DNA of 56,146 nucleotides, filler included, from Bipalium vagum (Eukaryota), in the NCBI GenBank assembly GCA_037834085.1. It is 3 parts of 3 records of this genome, joined end to end, with 100 filler letters (N's around TTAATTAATTAA, not from the genome) between each part and the next. Parts side by side here need not be neighbours in the genome. Positions count along the whole stretch, not along the records: positions 38,418 to 56,146 come from JBBMKC010053801.1; 2 more parts are not named here. The stretch is one strand, 5' to 3'. Both the position numbers and the translations under genes were made by a program. How positions within the stretch are numbered: the first letter of the stretch is position 1; each line of letters opens with the position of its first letter. This document shows, in pieces, positions 2,991 to 47,042 of this stretch. Under the pieces are notes generated by a model. It saw only the letters and a list, made by a program, of their open reading frames with translations. It made no database searches and was not told where the DNA came from.

Positions 2991-3859
2991 AATATAATGC
3001 TTAAAATCAGAAAAATATTATACAGAAACCCATTAATTATGGTTTTGAGAAGATTTGTAATTTATCTTTAAATTATGTCATGTATGATTTCATATTGAAG
3101 AATCCTGGATGGAATCTAAGTATAATTTCTCAAATGAAATATATTCACCATGAAAGATAAAAACAAAATCTCAAGCAGAAAACATGTATTAGGAACAAAA
3201 TGGAACATTCTAAAAACTTTAAAAACACATGAGAAGTACTACTTCATAGTTTACTTTGATAAAAATGATTAAAGTAATGTATGTTTCATGTTTCTCAGTA
3301 GTAAATATTGTTATACAAGTTTTCAAACGAGTTATTATATGAAATATTATCTATAGAAATGTCTATTAGAAATAATTATCCTAGATTTGAAGAAGAGTAA
3401 TTTGCTTGGATTAGTCAACATGAGAGAAAATTAATGATATTATGTCAATATTGGAACATCAAAATTAGAATTATTTATGATGGAGTAGTTGAATCAAAAT
3501 ATACATCACCAAATGAATTCTTAAAAAAGAAAAAAAAAGAAAAAAGAATGTCAAATAAAAAGAAGAAATCTTCAAGAAATAATTATGCCTCCATTACATA
3601 TAAGGTTGTTCGAAAAATAATGTCGCTTCTTAACATTGAACTTTGAATGTATATTTGTTTTTAAAAAACAAAACATAATTAATCGAAATAAGAACCATTC
3701 AATTCAACACGTTTTATTCAACAAAAGAGAAGCTTAGTTATTTATTCTCGTTGAGTAAAATTACGAAGTTTTTGAATCAATGAAATCATTGAAGAATTTT
3801 TTAACATCATTCTGATTTCTGAAACATTTTCCCCTCTTATTGCAATTTTTGAAGATAGA

Positions 3860-4025
3860 CAACAACCTCCATCATTAGTCAATAGGAAAGGACAGATTCT
3901 ACTTCATGATAACGCTCGACCTCATGTAGAACAATCGATCTTACAGAAATTAAGTCAAACCCTGCCTTACCCAGCATACTTATTCGACCTTTTACTTAAT
4001 GACTACCACTTCTTTAAACAACCAA
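3860..4025 (+). mobile_element. Mariner transposase remnant
   Basis: LVNRKGQILLHDNARPHV...LPYPAY..DL...DYHFFK. Confidence 0.8.
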
Positions 4026-4559
4026 AAAAAATTGAAAAAAATCATCAGCACCAAACAATTAGGAATCATAATAATTCTCTGGTTAGATCATCATAGCAGT
4101 TATTATGTAGGAATCACTCCATACTGATTGGAAATTAAAGATATTTGGGGATCATTTGTGATATGAACTTCAGAAAAAATTGGAAGATAAATTCAACGAC
4201 CAGAATAAAATATATGAAAAATCGATAACGTATGAATGATTTTATTTGACTAATACTTTATCTCGAAGATCCAAATATAGTAAAGAAAAATTAATTGTTC
4301 AAAATCTTTCTTATCACAAATTATGACACAGATAAATCACAGATAAAGAGTATTGCGAACTCAACTTTTAACAGTCTAACGATCTCCAAACACAAAAAGT
4401 AGAAGATGATATTTTACTCTCAAGTGACATTAATAATAAATCAAATGATCCGATGTTTTACCGATATCTCACTGAAGTGGTTAACAAGATTAGGAAATAC
4501 AATCCTGCTTCTCTATCTACTGTTGATTTAGGCAAAGACCTAGAATTATAGGAAGCAAC

Positions 4560-14840: not shown

Positions 14841-14923
14841 TTGAGAAAAACATTGCCTCTTTCCTATGTTCTGAGTAATTTTATAAAACCCTTTTTCGAA
14901 ATAAAGTGGTAGTTTTCGTTTTC
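14841..14923 (-). CDS. ds: Dachsous-like cadherin, exon 2
   Basis: Follows a 47-nt GT-AG intron (14924-14970). The phase-1 join gives G-KRKLPLYFEKGFYKITQNIGKRQCFSQ, ending at a strong CAA|GTAAGT donor (phase 0). Confidence 0.75.
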
Positions 14924-14970
14924 CTTAATAATTATTAGAATAATGATCTTATTAAATATTTTCACATTAC

Positions 14971-16588
14971 CTTTTATTATAATCTTGACTAGAGCATAAT
15001 CAATGGGTACTTTGTTTTTCACTAAATTCAATGAGACATTTAATAAGTATATTCCACAGTCTACAAAGGATTTGGAAGTTACGACTCCAGAACTTTGATT
15101 AATTTTAAACCAGTCGCTATGGTTTGAAAGATTGAAATAAAACTTAGACATGACAGGAATAGGTCTGTTGAGTTCAACAGTTAATATAATTTGATTACCA
15201 TAAAGTATAGGGTTTTCTAATTCGATACTGTGAACTTTTGTCTTAAAAAATATTTTACCCAAAAATGATTGTTTCACGTTAATATAGAGTACAGAAATCG
15301 TTGACAAAGAAGGTTCTGGAAAATCAATTGCTTGCAACGTTAAATTTACGATATCACTCTCAAAGTTACTTAAGTTTATCAATCTTAATTCCCACAGTGA
15401 AGATTGTATGTTGATCAGCTGAAAGTCAGAGTGATTTAAAATATTCAATTCGAATGAGGTGGATATGAGATCAACGTCTGTCACTTTAATATGAGCTATA
15501 ATTGAATTTAGTTTAGCATTTTCGTTAATAACAGGGGATCCGTTTGTCCAGACCGTTTGAATGATGGGTGGATTGTCATTTACATCAATGACATCGATTA
15601 TTATAGGCACTTTTGAAGTGTGAAGAGGTGAGTTATCTCTTACTCCGATACTTATTTGATGAGACTTTTTCTGTTCAAAGTCCAAATTCATTCTCAGAGA
15701 TATGTCTCCTGATTTATGATGAACAGTAAAATATTTGTTATCCACTGAGTTATTTTCCATAAAATAAAACAGTTCCCCTGTTACTCCAAAATCGCTATCT
15801 GTTGCTCTTACTCGCATAAAAGGCTTGTTAAGTTCATGATCTTCTTTTATACTTATAATATATCGAGATACATCAAATTTTGGTACATTATCATTGGCAT
15901 TCTGAACATTTATTTTAACAAGTAATGTCGATTGAAGGGGTGGAGAACCTCCATCAATTGCTTGGATAACAAAATTAAATTGAGATATACTCTCATAGTC
16001 TAATGGATGTTTTAAGATTAATCTAAGATAAAATAGTCCTTTAGAACCTTCATGATAATCGATTGCAAAAAATTTTCCATAGTCGCCCGAAATTATTTTC
16101 ACTAACTGAATACTGTTTCTACCTTCGTCTGGATCATAAACTGTTGTTAAATCAACCTTTGATCCAACAGGATAGTTTTCAGGAATTGTTTTCTCTAGAC
16201 TCGATACATTAAATTTCGGTTCGTTATCATTAACATCGATTAATTTTATTTGTATACTTTTAGTTTCCCCATTCACAGATATTATTAAAAATGAATACGT
16301 ATCTTGCTTTTCTCGATCTAACATTCTTGCTATTTTTATAATCCCAGTAGCCTTTGAAATCACAAAATTTTTACCTTGAAAATAATGAATTTCATAAGGT
16401 GGACTAAATCCTGGAGCACTGATTTGACCAACTATTTCACCGATTTTTGAATTTTCTTTAATATAGAATGTATTTAGGTCATTTTCTTTCAAGGATTCAT
16501 TGAGACATTGATTAAATGTGATAATAAAAATTAATATAAATCTATATTCAATAAAATTGGCCAATAAAGAACAGAGATATAGAAACAT
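14971..16588 (-). CDS. ds: Dachsous-like cadherin, coding exon 1 (signal peptide + about 5 EC repeats)
   Basis: Hydrophobic N-terminus; cadherin motifs LDRE/LDYE/LDFE, DVNDNEPKF, NANDNVPKF, DVNDNPP, AIDGGSPP, ATDSD. The exon ends at AAAG|GTAATG (phase 1), so the ORF-track tail to 14864 is intron read-through. FVDCG in EC5 plus cysteines in the next repeat resemble Dachsous/DCHS (family recall, no search run). Confidence 0.9.
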
Positions 16589-17197
16589 TTTAAAATACTA
16601 TTTTCGATAGAAAATCCATATAGTATAAAATAAACAACGCTGAAGCAGGCTCAAAATTTAATAAATTAATATTTCAAAGATAAACAAATTAATGCCTTTA
16701 TAAAGATTAATCTACTATCAATTATTAGACAGTTTAAACAAAATGCAAATGTTAATAATTATATATAAAATTTTTGAAGAACTTATAGACTTCATGCATT
16801 GAAATTTATTATTATTATTTAAATTATTTTATTATTATTAGAAAAGTATACATGTTAAATAAAAAGAAGTTTAACAATGTTATGTAACATTTTTGAAAAT
16901 CTTAAATTGAAAGTCAATTTGAATATTTTCTAATTTATGCTTTATTATATAGCAGAATTAAGAACTCATTTTGATGATGTGAAGACTTCCGAATAAAAAA
17001 AATTAACTACTGTGCTAATTTTGATTATTGTGTTTATTTTGACCAATCATTAATATCAGTTTTATTTCATTTTTATTTTGAAATATATTATTAAAATATA
17101 AATATTACTAAATATAAATAATGTAATAAAGATTATATTAAAACAATACATACTTAAATTGGATCAATTTCAGTTAAAACTACATTTCTGAAAAAGT

Positions 17198-17990
17198 TGT
17201 GTCAAATTTAGTTGATTTTCTTATGTGTGTCAAGGTTTATTGATGACATTATGTTGTGTCAAATTTAAATGATTTTTTGTGTAGTATCAAATTTTTCATG
17301 GTTAACAAATTTCAAAATTGAACTTAGGCAAATCATTAAATCAATCTTTTTGTGTCTAATGAATTGACGTATTCGCAAATGAAATATCAGGTATCGATTT
17401 CAGCCCCAGTTTTTATAATTGGTAAAATAAAGTTATTTTACAAGAAAAACTCCATAAAACTGGATGGAATTGAAATTATTTTTCAATGCGTCGAGGTAAA
17501 GGTCAATAACAACATTAAATACCACCGTGACAGAGGACCAAAATTTGGGCACTCACAATTTTCGATGCATCAGTGAATTCAGCTATTTGATTCTACCAGG
17601 TAATTCCAGATTAAAAAGCCGATACAATGTTATCAATTATTAGAAGTTTCGTTCGTCCCGGTTCAATAATATATACCGACGAATAGAAGTCTTATTTTAA
17701 ATTGAACTTTTAAACTTTTTAAACAAAATTCATATGGTTCGATACCTGGAGGGAAGAAACATTTAGTTAAACTCCACAATTACTTATAATATAAAAAATT
17801 TTGTAAAAGATGTTTTGTTAATTTTGTTTTCTATTTTAATCATATATTGTCAAATTTAGTTGATTTTTTACGTAGCTTTAAATTTTATTGATGACATTAT
17901 GTTTAGTCAAATTTAAATTTTTTTCTGTAGTGATGACATTATGTCATTATGTCATGTAATGTCACATTATGATGACATTATGTCATGTAA
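17198..17990 (+). repeat. Direct repeat of ~90 bp (about 17200-17290 and 17848-17935) built from TGTCAAATTT / TGACATTATGT units, upstream of the cadherin
   Basis: TGTCAAATTTAGTTGATTTT...TTATTGATGACATTATGTT..GTCAAATTTAAAT occurs in both copies. Confidence 0.75.
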
Positions 17991-18249
17991 GATTTAATTG
18001 TTGGTTGTTGTAATATCATGTTAATATGATCCCTTAAATTAAAAACGGAAAAGAACATGCATTTTTTGAAGAGTTATTTTAATAATATGTTATTAAAATT
18101 CATTATTACAATAAAAATGTTTAAATTATTTATTCGTAAAACTAAATGTTTATTTATTAAATTTTTGGTGCTGGTATTTCCAATTCTTCGGAATGCTATT
18201 TTTTTAAATAAACACTTAGAAGGTATAATAAATGAATAGGTCAAAATTA

Positions 18250-19646: not shown

Positions 19647-19746
19647 NNNNNNNNNNNNNNNNNNNNNNNNNNNNNNNNNNNNNNNNNNNNTTAATTAATT
19701 AANNNNNNNNNNNNNNNNNNNNNNNNNNNNNNNNNNNNNNNNNNNN
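19647..19746. other. Artificial scaffold join N44-TTAATTAATTAA-N44
   Basis: Exactly 100 bp with a central six-frame stop linker; identical structure at 38318-38417. Confidence 0.97.
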
Positions 19747-20990
19747 TGTCAAAACCGTATTTATTGTTATATTAAACAATAACATAGATAATGGACAGCC
19801 CTGCCTTACCCCTCTCTTAACGTTTATAGGGTCTGTAGAAATGGTCTCACAGAAAACTTTGGTTTGGCAATTTTGATATAAGTCTTCGATTATTTGTCGT
19901 GCATTTTCACCAACTCTGTGTCTTTCTAAGATGTCTAATATAACTCTGATCAGCACACTTCCGAATGCATCTGAAATATCAATGAAGCAGTTAAAAAGAT
20001 CCTCCTTCTTTAATTTAGCTTCCTCGATTTTCAGAGTCAGATTGAAGTTGTGTTCGGAACAGCCCTCAAAGTGCCCTAGTGATTTTATGATTTTTGTGCA
20101 TCAGCTTCTCTACCCGAACCCAGTCCTCTAACTGTTTGCAAAGAATTGACGTATAGAGCTTGTAACTCGTATTTAGAATGGCAATTGGACGCCAAGCATT
20201 GACTTTTAAGTAGTCGTCTTTGTTCGGCTTTGGAATTAATTTTGTTGAATATTCTTTCCACAGGTCTGGCATCTTTCGTTCAAGCATTATTGACTGCAAG
20301 AGATGTTCGTAGATCAGGACTTCTGGGTCAGCAATCAGGATGTCGTTATATATGATCCCATCTTGGCCAGGAGATGATTTTTTGTTTCTGCTTTTCAGAG
20401 TTTGTAGGATATCAGCTGTGGTGGGTAGACTAAAGTCGAATTTTTTTTCAGCTTGCTTGATCATTGGAGCAATCGAGGACGACCAGTTAGGCGGTTCTGG
20501 GATTGTCGATTTTTTCTTGAAGTCCGCCTTTATGTTATCAAGAGTTGGACATGTCTTAATTTCTGGCTCATCGATGTTTCGTATGATCTCCATCGCTCGT
20601 TTCATGTTTTTGTTGAACATTACTTTGAGATTTGATGGTTTAGAGTTCCGTGTAAGCCTAAGGTCAGGCTTATATGCTTTACACGGATTACAGTTCATTA
20701 TGAATTGGTTTATGATCCATATTTTGTTGTTTATTGGCATCACTAGATTTTTGGTTAACAAACCATGTAATCTTTTATTTAATGTTTCATTGCTTTCAAC
20801 GGATGTCTGCAATGGTTTGACCCGTTTTATGGTTTTCCTCTGTGTTGAGGTAGGAGCTGTGAATAGATCCTGGCTCATTTGGCTGGTTGAAGGAACCAAA
20901 ACTTGTTGGTTCGAGGCATCCAACGATTCCTTTTGACTGATGGAATCTTCCGAAGAGCAGTTTATGTCGAATTCTTAATCTTCAGGTTGA
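19747..20990 (-). mobile_element. Non-LTR retrotransposon RT fragment, restriction-like-endonuclease group (NeSL/R2/R4-like)
   Basis: SSPGQDGIIY, LIPK, WRPIAILNTSYKL, then a frameshift near 20080, then EGCSEHNF, FIDISDAFGSV, GVRQGCPLSMLLFN. Cut off by the scaffold join before YADD. Confidence 0.9.
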
Positions 20991-26677: not shown

Positions 26678-28673
26678 TATATTGTTCAGAAAGTTTTGCT
26701 CGATTTTTGTTTATATACATTAAAAAGTAAATACAAATAACTTTTTTAAAGATTATTTAATATCATATAGCATTTAAAATCTTACATATTATTTTCTTTA
26801 AAGTATTAAGTACCTTTTTCCTATTTAAATGTAGGATGTCGTGTCGCGGTTTGAGCCAAATGTTGAGCAACTGAAACTGTTGGAAAAGTTAATAAAGCTT
26901 GGGACCATGGTACTGTAAATCTGTCAATAGTACGACCAGAACAGTTGGAATCAGAAGTTCCATAATGGAGATTTATTCCTTGAAGATGCGGAACGAATTA
27001 GCCGTCCTTCCAAACTTGATGACAAGGAATTATTTGCTCTAATGGAAGAGTATACACGAACAACAAAAAGAAAACTTATCAAAAGTCTTGATGTCTATAT
27101 TGCAATCGTTTCCTCCTGACAATACCCGTCCGCACATAACAAAGCAAACTATGAATAAGCTGAAAAACTTAAAATTGAAATTCCGCCACATTACTCACCT
27201 GATCTCTCGTCAACTAATTTCCATTTATTCTAACATTTACAAAATTATTTGAATGGAAAAAGATTTCAGAACGAAGAGGTGCTAAAAACTGAATTTAAAC
27301 AGTTTCTCCAGGTCTACTGAATTCTGTTGCATAGGAATGGAAAATCTATCGATTCATCTTATGATGTTTTCAAATGAATGTATTAGGTCTACAAATATGA
27401 CTCCGCCGTTTTTACCCTTATTTAAAATCAAATAAATAAAAAACAACCAAAGCAAATTTATAAAAGATTTTTATTAAAAATAATTTCCTTCACTCATGAA
27501 AACGTTTTCCCAAAGTTGTGGCAGTTTATGTATGCCATCATAGAAAAAATTATTTGATTTAGAGGCAATCCAATGATCTAGCCATTTTTTTACATCCTCA
27601 TAAGTCATAAAGCTGTGCTCTGACAGACAATGTGCCATCGAACGGAATACTAAGATAATCCGACGGAACAATGTCTGAAGAGTATGGCGGGTGGGGTAAG
27701 ACATCTCATTTCAACTATTTTATAGCCTCATCAACGATTTTTCCGACATGAGGCCGAGCGTTGTCATGAAGCAATATTATCTTCCCTTATCTATCTTATT
27801 TCTTCGTTTAGTTCCATTAACTGCTGTTGATAGCAATTGGCAGTCACGGTTTCACCAGGTTTCAGAAATTCGTAGAACAGGATACCTTTTTGATCCTATC
27901 ATATGCATAAAAATACTTTTTCCCATGAATGTTGCGCTTTGGAGTTGATTTTGTCAGCTAACCTGGATCAACCCAAGATTTTTTTTGTCTGGGATTGGAG
28001 AAATATATCCATTTTTCATCACCATTTACTATACGATGAAGTTAAGATTTTCTTTTGTTTATTTTGATCAAAATTTTGCATGTGGTTTTTCTCTGCTCTT
28101 GGATTCTTTCTGTTAATGCATGAGGCATCCACTTTCTCACCTTTAGAATCTTTCCTAAACCACGTAAACGATTGGAGATTGTTTGTTGGGAAACATTCAA
28201 TAAAGCAGCTAATTGTACCTGAGTTTGACAGTCGTCTTCGTCCAACAAGTCGTACAAATCAGGGTCTTCAATTTTTTTTGGTGGATTTCCGTGGGCATTG
28301 TCATTAAGGTTAAAATTACCCGTTTTGAATTTTTGAAACCATTTCCGACATGTTCTTTCAGCTAAAGAATTGTTGCCATAAGCCTGTACTAGTAATTTAT
28401 ATGCTTTGGCAACATTTTTCTTTAAATTAAAGAAAAATAATAAAGCTTCCCGGCACAAATATTGTCATCTAAAATAGGAAATAATTAATGATGTGCAAAC
28501 TAATTAAAAAATTATTATATTATTATAATTAGCGCTCAAGTGAATATTATTTAAACAACAACAAATATACAAAAAAATAATTTCATTTTAATTCTTATTA
28601 TAAAAAATAAGAACGGAGTAGTCATATTTGTAGACCTAATGCAAAAAACGTGCAAAACTTTTCGAACCTCATA
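26678..28673 (+). mobile_element. Older, internally deleted mariner hosting the 27383-28639 element
   Basis: Left end TATATTGTTCAGAAAGTTTTGCTCGATTTTTG matches the reverse complement of the right end TATGAGGTTCGAAAAGTTTTGCACGTTTTTTG. Remnants KFHNGDLFLEDAER..RP, DNTRPH, YSPDLSSTNFHLF lie in 26880-27350. Confidence 0.8.
27383..28639 (-). mobile_element. Near full-length mariner (Mos1/mauritiana-like), inactivated
   Basis: 28-bp TIRs TTAGGTCTACAAATATGACT(C/A)C(G/T)CCGTT with TA/TG flanks, 1257 bp. Transposase motifs TCRKWFQKFKTGNF, DEDDCQTQ, WMPHAL, HRIVNGDEKWI, LLHDNARPH, HPPYSSDIVPSDY, broken by stops and frameshifts. Confidence 0.95.
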
Positions 28674-33071: not shown

Positions 33072-33525
33072 ATTATTTTATTGATTTTCAGCAGGTTTTG
33101 TTTAAATAACAACAGATTTTAGTACGTTTTTTAAAAAAATTATACACCAAATGTTTTCTTCTGAGTTTGCAGACAATAGTGATTATTTTGTAACACCATA
33201 ATAAGAATAAAAATAAAGATAATTTTTTTATACATTACATTTAGAAATTGTAAATTTAATCAATTTATTATCATGTTTTTATTGAGTCACATTATATTAA
33301 TTTATTGATTTATCAGTTTTTGTTTAAATAACAACAGATTTTAGTACATTTTTGAAAAAATAAATTTTATACAACAAATGTCTTCTCTTGATATTGCAGG
33401 CAATAATGATTTTTTTGTAACATCGAAATCGGAGTAAAAATAAAAATAAAATATTATTAAAACAACATTTTTTATACATTACATTCAGAAATTGTAAATT
33501 TAATTAATTTATTATCATTTTTTTT
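33072..33525 (+). repeat. Diverged tandem duplication, 2 x ~225 bp
   Basis: Shared blocks TTTGTTTAAATAACAACAGATTTTAGTAC and TTTTTTATACATTACATT.AGAAATTGTAAATTTAAT.AATTTATTATCAT. Confidence 0.9.
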
Positions 33526-42400: not shown

Positions 42401-42629
42401 ACAGAGCCTTGATCTTAATGTTAACTTAGAGTAATAAGGGTGCCCAATGCATCATAATATCTGAAAACATTAAGAGATTTTTCAATTTTTCTTTGATATA
42501 TTATGAGACTTTTGAAGTCGTTTTTGTTCTTTCTCATAGTTTTTTATAAGTAATTAAATCAGGTTATGAAATTTAAAGATGCTTTATATAAGATTAAAAT
42601 AATAAAAAGTAAAGATTTTCTTAATTCAG

Positions 42630-44143
42630 GAATTGAACTTTGTGATTTCTGGATCTGTTTTGATGTCATGTGTTGCTCAGCCTCAATTCTTCACCTTGTA
42701 GCCATAGCTTTTGATAGATATTGGGCAGTTACCAATATCGATTATATCAGAATGAGGACCGCTAAACGAATTATCATTATGATTATTCTCGTTTGGGTTC
42801 TTTCTCTAATCATATCGATACCGTCTCGTTTCTATGCAAGTCGGACCTGGACTCAGGTGTATGATAAAGTTGTGAAAAATGGCATATGTGACATAAATGA
42901 TGAATATTTTTATACTATTTTCTCAACAGTTGGTGCTTTTTATATGCCAATGTTTCTATTGATCGGTGTATATTTAAAGATTTATCAGACTGCTAGGGCA
43001 AGGATTCGTAGGCACGGCCTGCGAAAGCCAAATAAACAGTTCAATAGCAGCATCATTAAAAGTATCAAAAAATGCCCCTTTCGTTGGACGAAAAAAGTGA
43101 AATTTGTTCAGATCAAGAGAGATAACCACACAACCCATCACTACCAGTGCAGTTCCAACAATACTCAATCAAACAATTATGTACAGCTACATATAGATTT
43201 ACAGAACTATGAGATTTCCTCATTTTATAATTCTGATTTTTCTAAAATTCAAGCAAACTCATTTGATATGGACTCCATCAATCAAAGCTCATTCGATCCT
43301 CATTCTAGCTCATCATCTCACAAATATTGCAATTCCAGTTGTGAACAGATCAATAAGACTAACTATGACCCAAGTAGGATCAATTCAAATTCGATCATTC
43401 AGTCCCAGTGTCATCAGAATCTTTGCCAACATGAAATCAATAACAACAACTTTTCTATTGTTCAATCTCCTGTAGTATTGGACACCGAAGTTCTCAATGA
43501 TAGCCTGTTTCAGTCCGAAAAGGTCGTGGATAAGACATTATGGAACTGGAAAGAAACCAGCAGTCTCAACAACTCTCCCAGACTCACTTGTCCAAGTCGT
43601 CCGAAAAGTGATTGTATAGAATATTTGAAAAAAACGAAAAAAAAGTTCCGTTCCAAACCTTCATTGAGCCCAAATATCCATTATAAATTGGCCGGTCTCG
43701 TAGTGCCTGACAGTGTCAACTATCAGAACACGAAGACGGTGTTGAACAACAATCTTTATGAAACGAAGTCCCGCATGTCTCGGCTAGAAATATACCCAGT
43801 GTCACATGTTGCATTTAGTGATTTTACATCTCGCAAAACGTACGTTGAACAACAAAAACAAAAACTTGAACATAAACGTGAGAGAAAAGCTGCTCGTACG
43901 CTGGCTATCATAACAGGGTGTTTCATCCTGTGTTGGCTTCCGTTTTTCATTCAAGCCTTGGTTTTACCCTTCTGCGGCAAGAAATGCCTTTCCAGTAGCT
44001 TGTTCAACTCATTCTGCCTTTGGCTTGGATACTGTAATTCTTTGCTGAATCCGATTATATACACCATTTTTTCTCCTGAATTCAGAAATGCATTTAATAA
44101 AATTCTCTTTGGTCGATACAAAAAGACAAAAAGAGGTTATTGA
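42630..44143 (+). CDS. Serotonin receptor, 5-HT1-like class A GPCR; terminal exon encoding TM3-TM7
   Basis: TM3 CDFWICFDVMCCSASILHL with the aminergic Asp3.32, DRYW, TM5 STVGAFYMP, TM6 ERKAARTLAIITGCFILCWLPFF, TM7 LWLGYCNSLLNPIIY. Acceptor TTTTCTTAATTCAG| at 42629 (phase 1). TM1-2 are absent, so the ORF-track ATG at 42566 is intronic. Confidence 0.92.
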
Positions 44144-44160: not shown

Positions 44161-44166
44161 AATAAA
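44161..44166 (+). promoter_or_regulatory. Candidate polyadenylation signal of the GPCR
   Basis: First AATAAA after the stop codon, followed by T-rich sequence. AATAAA is common by chance in this composition. Confidence 0.3.
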
Positions 44167-45119
44167 GAAATAGGTTTTTCTTATTTTTATACAAAATTTA
44201 TAAACGATTATTTTAATACAATTATTTTATTTTGGTTTATCTTTTTAAATTGACAAAAAGTGACATAATGAAAAAAATTTTTGAAAAAATGATAAAAATA
44301 TTAAAAATAATAATCAAAATATTATTAGTATAATATATATATATATATATATAGAAAATTTTCTTTCATTTCCCATTAAGCAAATTCAATATATGCCCTT
44401 TTCTAATGATTTAACTTCCCATAAAATAATAATAAATAATTCCCTATCAATATTTTCAATCTAAATTATTAAAATGTGAAAATATAATTAATTTCTGGGA
44501 AAAAAAATAATTTTCCCCCAAAAAATATCTGTATTTTACGCAAAATTAAAACAAACTTCATAAAACAAAAATAAAATGTCATCAAATTAAATCTTAATTG
44601 TTGACATCAAAAAAATAGATTTTCGTGTTAATAGAATTAAATCGTAAAACCTTAGAAATCCTATAAAAATATCGTCCGAAATCAATTTTATGTTATGGGC
44701 TTAGCAAACGAAATTATTTTAATTAACTAGCGGTAGATAACAAAGTCGACGTATATTTTATATAAACGTCTCTGATAATTACTTTATTCTTATAATTCAT
44801 ATGTTATATAGATTTTGTTGACTTCATTTCCGGTTTCAATGGATATTTGAGCAGTCAAGTTAGCTATTTAAAACAAAAAAATGAAAACATTTAATTTATA
44901 GATGGAATTATATAAATAATAATTTCTCACTGAAAGGATGAAATTCTGTCATCAATGGTAGAGGTAATTATTTAATTATAGGCTTATATGAATAGTATAA
45001 AAATTTATATTCATTTATTATATATTATATATATTCATTTATTATATATATTATTTTTTTAATTAAACGATTTTTAAAAAACATTTTTGAACACGCAAAA
45101 TTTTATTTATACTGCTATC

Positions 45120-45163
45120 TTGAAACATGTTTCGATCTCTTCTTTCAGATCTTCTTCAGTCAA
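45120..45163 (-). ncRNA. Minimal type-I hammerhead ribozyme motif (Penelope-like element type)
   Basis: Minus strand reads TTGA CTGAAGA A GATCT-GAAAGAAG-AGATC GAA ACATGT T TCAA. It has stem I (TTGA/TCAA), core CUGAAGA, a 5-bp stem II, GAAA, palindromic ACAUGU stem III and a GUU cleavage triplet. Confidence 0.75.
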
Positions 45164-46204
45164 TTTTCTTCTTCTTCAATGACTTTCTTCAAATGATATC
45201 ACTATCATGATTTAGAAATATTATCTGCATTATTATTGGATAAAAATAAAAAAAAAATTTTTAATTCTACAAACTTTAAAAATATCATTTTTTTAATATT
45301 TTAAATTTTTTTTTAATTATTCTTTTTTTTAAAAATATATATACATTTATATATATATAGAGAGAGAGAATCTTCTACTTAATATTATTAATATCTTTAT
45401 TATCCATCTGAAATGTTATTTATTCCTTAATAATTCTTTATTTGTTAGAAATTTTCACCAGGTGAATGAAGATAAGATTTCTAATTTAGTCGATTTAATT
45501 TTATCCTACATTTAAAACAATTTTGAGACATTTTTCTATTTTAAAATTTTTTCATAATGATAATTTTTAGGAGAGAAAACATTTCGTAATTTAATTACAT
45601 CATTAAATGAAATAAATGCATTTCCGTATTACTTAATAATAATTTTGTTTTAATTATTACAACGGTCTCTGTTCTAGTCTTTAAATACAAAATATTTATA
45701 TAATTAAAGAGTTTAAACATGATTTATTGATTTTTAACTGTTCCCGTTTCTGTTTTTATTTTAAATTATGTTTTTCTTCCTCAGTCTAAATTATATTTAT
45801 TTATAATAAAATTTTATAAGTCTTCCAAAGTGTTATTGCCAATAAAAGTATTCCCATGATTAATTTAATTTTTGTCTATTTTAATAAATATTTCTTTTAT
45901 ATATCTCAAGGAAATAAATAAATTTAAGAAACTATTTATAATTGCTAATCTTAATATATAATATCACGTAATATTGAACTTTTTACAGTCCTGATAATTG
46001 AGATTCAGACAATATCCTAGCGGAAATATATTTCTTAATATCTGTCTACTGATTTCATAGGAAATATTATTAATTTTCCTTTTTTTATTATGTTTAAATG
46101 TAAGTAACAAAATGATTAAAATTATGAAAAATAACATTTACATGAATTTCAAGAGACAAGCATAATGTAATTTCTAAGACTAAAAAAACTATTTTTTATT
46201 TTTA

Positions 46205-47042
46205 TTAGGTTTATCGGTAAATGATGCGGATTTTTTTGACAAACAAGATGAGAAGATTTCAAAAAATACATAGAAATATTCTATTCAAAGAAATGGTCAT
46301 TATTAATTACACATTTCCATCTTTCGGGTAGCTTGTTGATGCTGTTCCAAAAAATAACTTTTCCTGTTTGGAGGCGAGCCATTTAGAGACCCACTTTTTG
46401 GACATCTTCGTAAGTCTTGAATTGTTGCTCAGCATATCCATTTGCCATAGACTGAAACAAATAGAAATCTGAAAGGAGTGAGATCTGGTGAATATAGCGA
46501 ATAGGTGACTACTTCCCAACTAGATCTTTTAACTTGATTTTGATTAATTTTGAAGTATGTGATCCATAAGCTGTCATGGAGCAAAATTATTTTATCCCTA
46601 TCTTTAAAATCTTTCTCATTTCATTTAGAAGATCAGAAACTGTTTGCTGATACTAAGTTGTTCTTACCTTTGACATACATCTTCATCCACTGAGGCTTGC
46701 AATTGTTGGTCTTCAAATGTAGAAGTACTCCCTGGACTTTCATTTTGAATCACACTGAAATCATCATTTTTAAAACGCTTAAACCAACGCTCATAAGTAA
46801 CCTAAGATTATGCAAAATATGCGGCAGTTTACTCATAATAAGATGGTGAATCATAAATCCTTTCCAGGAATAAATTATTTCATGCTTAAATCTAAAATAT
46901 TCAAACTAGTAAACAGTATGTATTAAAACAATATACGATATACCATATATATACGATATTCGCATAATCAATAAGATTTGTTTTATCTTATATCATAAAA
47001 GATAGATTTTAAAAAATCTGCGTTCTTTACCGGTACACCCAA
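46205..47042 (-). mobile_element. Internally deleted mariner
   Basis: TA-flanked TIRs TTAGGTTTATCGGTAAATGATGCGGATTTTTT / TTGGGTGTACCGGTAAAGAACGCAGATTTTTT. Remnants ERWFKRFKNDDFSV, LLHDS, YSPDLTP. Confidence 0.85.

Follow-up and report, generated by a model that had tools for sequence, protein, structure and literature searches.

A minimal hammerhead motif, predicted to be inactive at its locus, in a high-copy repeat of Bipalium vagum that is probably a truncated Penelope-like retrotransposon end

The stretch of Bipalium vagum DNA considered here (hereafter the window; 56,146 nucleotides, comprising three parts of assembly GCA_037834085.1 and the filler between them) is populated by a few host genes and the remains of several mobile elements. 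The last coding exon of a 5-HT1-type serotonin receptor lies at 42554-44143 on the plus strand and is followed by AATAAA signals at 44161, 44431, and 44570. The receptor shows 85% identity over 105 amino acids to Schmidtea mediterranea GCR083 (the next match is at 69%), which points to a planarian-like host. About 980 nucleotides past its stop, and on the opposite strand, there is a hammerhead motif (45120-45163), in accordance with the original prediction, which had placed it antisense to the receptor and about 1 kb downstream. The motif is embedded in a dispersed repeat spanning at least 45067-45255 on the minus strand, this being the minimum extent given by contig coverage. On its 3' side in minus-strand orientation, the repeat is adjoined by a TA-rich tandem patch (45005-45056). 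Beyond it, at about 46270-46900 on the minus strand, is a frameshifted transposase relic (C-terminus at 46284-46519, HTH part at 46667-46801), which we take to be mariner; further mariner pieces are seen at 3776-4096 and 28042-28464 (HTH_48). The remainder of the window includes a long minus-strand exon of a Fat/Dachsous-like protocadherin at 14864-16597, with cadherin repeats and a FAT4-like N-terminal domain, and degenerate local direct repeats of 49-91 nucleotides at 17200-18020 and 33087-33524. A fragment of a non-LTR retrotransposon reverse transcriptase (RVT_1) extends across an assembly gap at 19699-20974 on the minus strand. This reverse transcriptase (19700-20974) was considered as that of a Penelope-like element (PLE) and rejected, because it is non-LTR-like by sequence and negative with the PLE profile. 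Indeed, a Pfam scan, tblastn, and the PLE profile (best i-E 0.092) recovered no PLE ORF in the window, as had been noted at the outset.

Read along the minus strand from 45163 to 45120, the motif displays, element by element and in the correct order, the catalytic core that had been claimed for it, and has the form of a minimal type-I hammerhead of the PLE type with a 2-nucleotide palindromic insert in helix III. Stem I is formed by 4 base pairs between UUGA (45163-45160) and UCAA (45123-45120). Next comes the core box CUGAAGA (C3-A9, 45159-45153), which together with an extra A at 45152 occupies 45152-45159; this extra nucleotide, placed between A9 and G10.1, is typical of PLE hammerheads. 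Stem II (45134-45151) pairs GAUCU (45151-45147) with AGAUC (45138-45134) over 5 bp, with pair probabilities above 0.99, and is capped by the 8-nucleotide loop GAAAGAAG, situated between 45147 and 45138 on the minus strand. The G10.1-C11.1 pair is present (G45151-C45134). Stem II is followed by GAAA (45133-45130), C-AU-G, U16.1 (45125), and U17 (45124), after which cleavage is predicted to occur. The type-I succession of CUGANGA, GAAA, and NUH is thereby retained, with GUU at the cleavage site, and positions 15.2-16.2 together with loop III are palindromic (ACAUGU). The extra nucleotide after A9 and the G10.1-C11.1 pair were not part of the earlier description. Helix I of 4 bp, helix II of 5 bp, and loop II of 8 nucleotides fall within the descriptor ranges in Fig. 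S7 of PMC4209133 (3-7 bp, 3-7 bp, and 3-10 nucleotides, respectively), and every field of the PLE hammerhead consensus in Fig. S3 of that work is matched. It also names four traits that are typical or lie outside the descriptor, namely, the extra nucleotide after A9, G10.1-C11.1, the palindromic 15.2-16.2, and a short helix I, and the motif has all of them. Judged by their sequence, the 44 bases are a real minimal hammerhead motif of a known class in a known host group.

On both strands of the whole window, three descriptors match at 45120-45163 only, and neither these nor nhmmer detected a partner motif within the 56 kb, in keeping with the initial statement that the window holds no second copy. 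A further segment, at 620-660 on the plus strand, agrees in 17 of 18 bases with the 5' flank, the stem I strand, and the core box of the motif (blastn E 0.037). It is followed by a 4-bp hairpin but lacks a GAAA box and a partner for stem I; nhmmer gave no match there, the window has 30 CTGANGA boxes, and the segment is either the remnant of a second hammerhead or a product of chance. Block-wise dinucleotide shuffling of the window (1956 shuffles) gave 20 matches to the relaxed descriptor, 3 to the medium one, and 0 to the strict one, which had been drawn up after the motif had been seen. Over about 250,000 windows, the medium rate would not exclude chance, and hence it is the evidence from the repeat family that carries the case. 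The Rfam covariance models gave no hammerhead family at the gathering threshold or at E up to 10, and nos_TCE, the sole match at E up to 10, was taken as chance.

Beyond the window, the description of the motif as an orphan is not borne out: 701 contigs of one run match 45060-45260 at 80% similarity, 111 of them at 99% or more, 163 at 95-99%, 241 at 90-95%, and 186 at less than 90%. This run contains 98% of the words of the region and is possibly the source of the window itself, and thus does not constitute independent evidence. Among the contigs are some of 500-1200 nucleotides, at a depth of 12-27, that differ by 8-24 letters and extend past the stretch. Hundreds of distinct variants of the repeat are observed, and the genome may have thousands of copies. 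The summed contig depth, which is not equivalent to copy number, reaches about 100,000 on 45137-45157, about 20,000 beside it, and less than 10,000 further 5'. Coverage runs to both edges of the query, and loose contig ends suggest that the repeat reaches to about 45045. The TA-rich patch next to it is a possible insertion target, in line with the microsatellite bias reported for PLEs in PMC8557442.

The variation within the family is unevenly distributed. Among the variant rows listed, those at or above 1% affect a single constrained position out of 33 (G12, at 1%), 3 of the 11 free positions, and 27 of the 157 in the flanks. A Fisher test of constrained against flank positions gives p 0.024, and one against the 60 nearest flank positions gives p 0.0007. 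Neither the core box with its extra nucleotide nor the stems show a variant at or above 1% among these rows, compensatory stem changes included. Two positions of loop II (45139 and 45143) differ in about 73% of the depth. The cleavage base U17 is replaced by A (GUU to GUA) at 45124 in 7% of the depth, both bases being allowed. Since depth is greatest on the core, a variant there reaches 1% less easily, which favors a result of conservation; as the tally is, moreover, of the rows listed, it is only suggestive that the variation of this multicopy family spares the core and stems. The homologues on which the original prediction depended are accordingly present in hundreds of contigs, and their conservation of core and stems stands at this suggestive level.

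The high copy number and the lack of a visible ORF could also be accounted for by a short non-autonomous hammerhead element, either a non-LTR retrozyme or a PLE-derived SINE-like unit, which amplifies itself and is mobilized in trans by a PLE. According to 10.64898/2026.07.22.740005, the retrozymes of animals derive from PLEs, are non-autonomous, and often occur as solo monomers; non-LTR retrozymes (see also PMC7229834) are likewise non-coding repeats whose type-I hammerhead depends on dimer formation. However, their motif is a canonical one of 6 bp and 4 bp, whereas the window has the minimal PLE type. Moreover, retrozymes are defined as tandem repeats, but the hammerhead occurs as a single copy in the window without a tandem array at the locus; among the matching contigs, five opposite-strand joints are found within single contigs and none that would indicate head-to-tail copies. 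The drop in depth 5' of the motif fits 5' truncation, although divergence or edge effects would give the same. On balance, such a unit is unlikely.

We favor instead, at a probability of roughly 0.8, the reading that the repeat copy bearing the motif is likely what 5' truncation has left of a Penelope-like retrotransposon, namely, its 3' end (pseudo-LTR), and that the motif is predicted to be inactive at this locus. The earlier proposal of a pLTR relic or small ribozyme-bearing repeat is thus supported, both by the fit to the PLE consensus and by a high-copy repeat whose core is spared by variation. The PLE link of the family itself is likely by analogy with other animals. In the published model (PMC4209133), a pair of motifs in a tandem transcript forms helix III and cuts after NUH; in vitro, weak cleavage was seen with dimers and none with single minimal motifs. 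In an active parent of the Bipalium repeat, two motifs in a tandem transcript would likewise pair via the ACAUGU palindrome to form a 6-bp helix III, and this dimer would cut after GUU, trimming the RNA of the element. Truncated reverse transcription would scatter many short 3' ends bearing the motif, such as that at 45120-45163.

Comparable motifs are known from Drosophila virilis Penelope, Adineta vaga Athena, and an Oikopleura PLE (PMC4209133), which resemble that of the window in the CUGANGAH box with its extra nucleotide, G10.1-C11.1, the 2-nucleotide palindromic helix III insert, NUH, a short helix I, AT-rich flanks, and an occurrence mostly as single dispersed copies. The insert groups the window motif with these variants, and like other insert variants it would be missed by the strict descriptor of that work (gaaannuh). 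It differs from them in a palindrome that extends to 12 nucleotides over the GAAA box and stem I, in a helix II without a bulge, and in that the window yielded no PLE ORF. The PLE hammerhead families of S. mansoni have a helix II of 7-8 bp, in contrast to the shorter one of 5 bp here. The PLE-linked hammerhead of Schmidtea mediterranea (AAWT01060303; Table S1 and Fig. S3 of PMC4209133) comes from the same host group and shares CUGAAGA with the extra nucleotide, a 5-bp stem II, and a short stem I; yet its stem and loop sequences differ and it lacks the helix III insert, indicating a family distinct from that of the window. No description of this particular family was found in the open-access literature, including the accessible part of PMC6431247.

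A wider view of the motif class comes from a metagenome scan with a pattern of core and stem II only, which gave at least 119 loci (L001-L119) with 120 distinct motif contexts. These belong to a few families and hence do not represent 120 independent events; their likeness to the window motif in stem II was imposed by the search pattern, and the ACATGT palindrome is shared in addition. Among the matches listed, the ACATGT continuation is seen in 82 of 120 distinct motifs (background 0.001), some palindrome in 100 of 120 contexts, and NUH together with at least 3 pairs in stem I in 71 of 120. The palindromes of 84 ACATGT motifs measure six nucleotides in 71 cases, eight in 12, and ten in one, none of those listed attaining the 12 of the window. 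A subset of 99 listed contexts has CATGT or CGT as well as 14 bases upstream; at every position of stem I, 88-94 of them are paired, by C-G, T-A, or A-T in different families; stem I thus covaries between families that are unrelated to one another, and 15 of the 99 have U17, as does the window. Divergent inverted motif pairs are found in 15 of the 119 loci listed, two of them from one contig.

With regard to coding capacity, a GIY-YIG ORF ends 230 nucleotides upstream of the motif in L033, on the same strand (E 1.8e-4, 22.2 bits against a Pfam cutoff of 22.6), and longer relatives of this ORF encode RT, GIY-YIG, or both. This is the one GIY-YIG match among 59 scanned ORFs of the matches listed (62 nearby or long ORFs, less 3 duplicates from one contig). 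In L020, L063, and L065, what we take to be PLE endonuclease C-termini lie directly upstream of the motif, the upstream ORF of L020 giving a weak PLE profile match. The divergent inverted arrangement, too, is described for PLEs in the accessible text of PMC8557442. There are several abundant families of PLE ends with ACATGT hammerheads (e.g., L002, L007, L033, and L073), often as divergent inverted pairs 65-1100 nucleotides apart; the ACATGT families of L001-L119 were matched to no entry in the 2014 alignment (PMC4209133). The loop of L033 has the same first five bases as the planarian majority loop (unphased) would have, but families of this type have CTCC/GGAG in stem I in place of TTGA/TCAA, and their flanks are unrelated. 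Indeed, the metagenome family profile matches the window at 45159-45124 only. As the likeness ends at the motif, these families illustrate the motif class rather than the parent of the window repeat.

The motif lies in GAA-rich sequence, and an acidic, helix-like peptide can be read through it on the minus strand (45175-45110), raising the alternative that it is the relic of a coding repeat or resembles a hammerhead by chance. This is favored by a 22-codon open stretch, by the absence of the stop at 45178-45176 in 86% of the depth, and by a fold energy no better than that of shuffles (z -0.28), although the last is expected for a minimal motif. However, the peptide belongs to no Pfam family (best E 0.079) and a weak search with E up to 10 turned up no related protein; on these grounds an EF-hand-like or other coding exon was rejected. 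The two major motif variants are nonsynonymous in the peptide frame but are located in loop II, third codon positions within the core are invariant, and none of the shuffles reached the strict descriptor. Further, L020 also shows ORF read-through into its hammerhead, and an open frame is thus no argument against a PLE end; given the frequent absence of the stop, the ORF of the parent may likewise continue into the motif. A coding or chance origin therefore appears very improbable.

The putative Penelope-like end at this locus is predicted to be inert on account of its palindrome and its lack of a partner. The self-complementary ACAUGU first proposed for stem III is indeed present, but the palindrome is longer than had been stated, forming a perfect 12-nucleotide unit at 45122-45133 (minus strand) that takes in the GAAA box, ACAUGU, U17, and two bases at the start of the 3' strand of stem I. 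Nearest-neighbor folding, which ignores tertiary and protein contacts that could shift the outcome, predicts -14.0 kcal/mol for the 12-nucleotide duplex, compared with -4.6 kcal/mol for the 6 bp of the active form. In the modeled monomer, the palindrome hairpin (-5.6 kcal/mol) is preferred to stem I plus II (-4.9 kcal/mol), and in a modeled tandem the active dimer fold would lie 18.6 kcal/mol above the MFE; in context, the predicted pairing probability of stem I is 0.002 or less. In the palindrome, U17 and stem I are paired to the GAAA box, and the core is thereby predicted to be masked. With its core predicted to be locked in this way and with no partner, the copy at 45120-45163 is likely inert. 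The central 10 bases of the palindrome (45123-45132) fit the p53 half-site pattern RRRCWWGYYY, with no second half-site beside them; this match is likely a by-product of the hammerhead core.

These predictions also bear on the function that had been envisaged for the motif, namely, that of a co-opted ribozyme cutting antisense RNA that runs toward the 3' end of the serotonin receptor. The strand and distance of the motif, and the intact core of this copy, would allow such a role. On the other hand, intact cores are the rule across the repeat family, a partner is missing, single PLE minimal motifs did not cleave in vitro, the 12-nucleotide palindrome is predicted to outcompete the active fold, and all three AATAAA signals of the receptor precede the repeat. 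The idea that the motif processes antisense RNA running into the 3' end of the receptor thus finds no support, and such control is extremely improbable. A distance of about 1 kb to a gene is not remarkable in so abundant a family: of hundreds to thousands of copies placed at random, dozens would be expected to fall that close to the end of a gene. The closeness of the motif to the receptor is likely incidental.

As a further planarian family, the repeat adds one more to the PLE hammerheads described in 2014, its relevance lying in repeat annotation only. Its one feature that can be put to use is the 12-nucleotide palindrome. With no variant row at 45122-45123 among those listed and a 7% variant at 45124, most copies appear to share the long palindrome, as seen in contigs that drop rare variants. 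It is conceivable, though improbable, that the entire family is a self-locked hammerhead, whose core is conserved beyond its flanks and yet has its GAAA sequestered by the palindrome in both monomer and dimer. If so, the motif may have been kept for RNA dimerization or for recognition by a PLE protein or, alternatively, cleavage may take place only after a protein refolds it. The family would then offer a natural test of whether PLE hammerheads work by cleavage at all. The minor U17-to-A variant, which breaks the 12-nucleotide palindrome, provides together with the unbroken form a ready pair for addressing whether these motifs are retained for cleavage.
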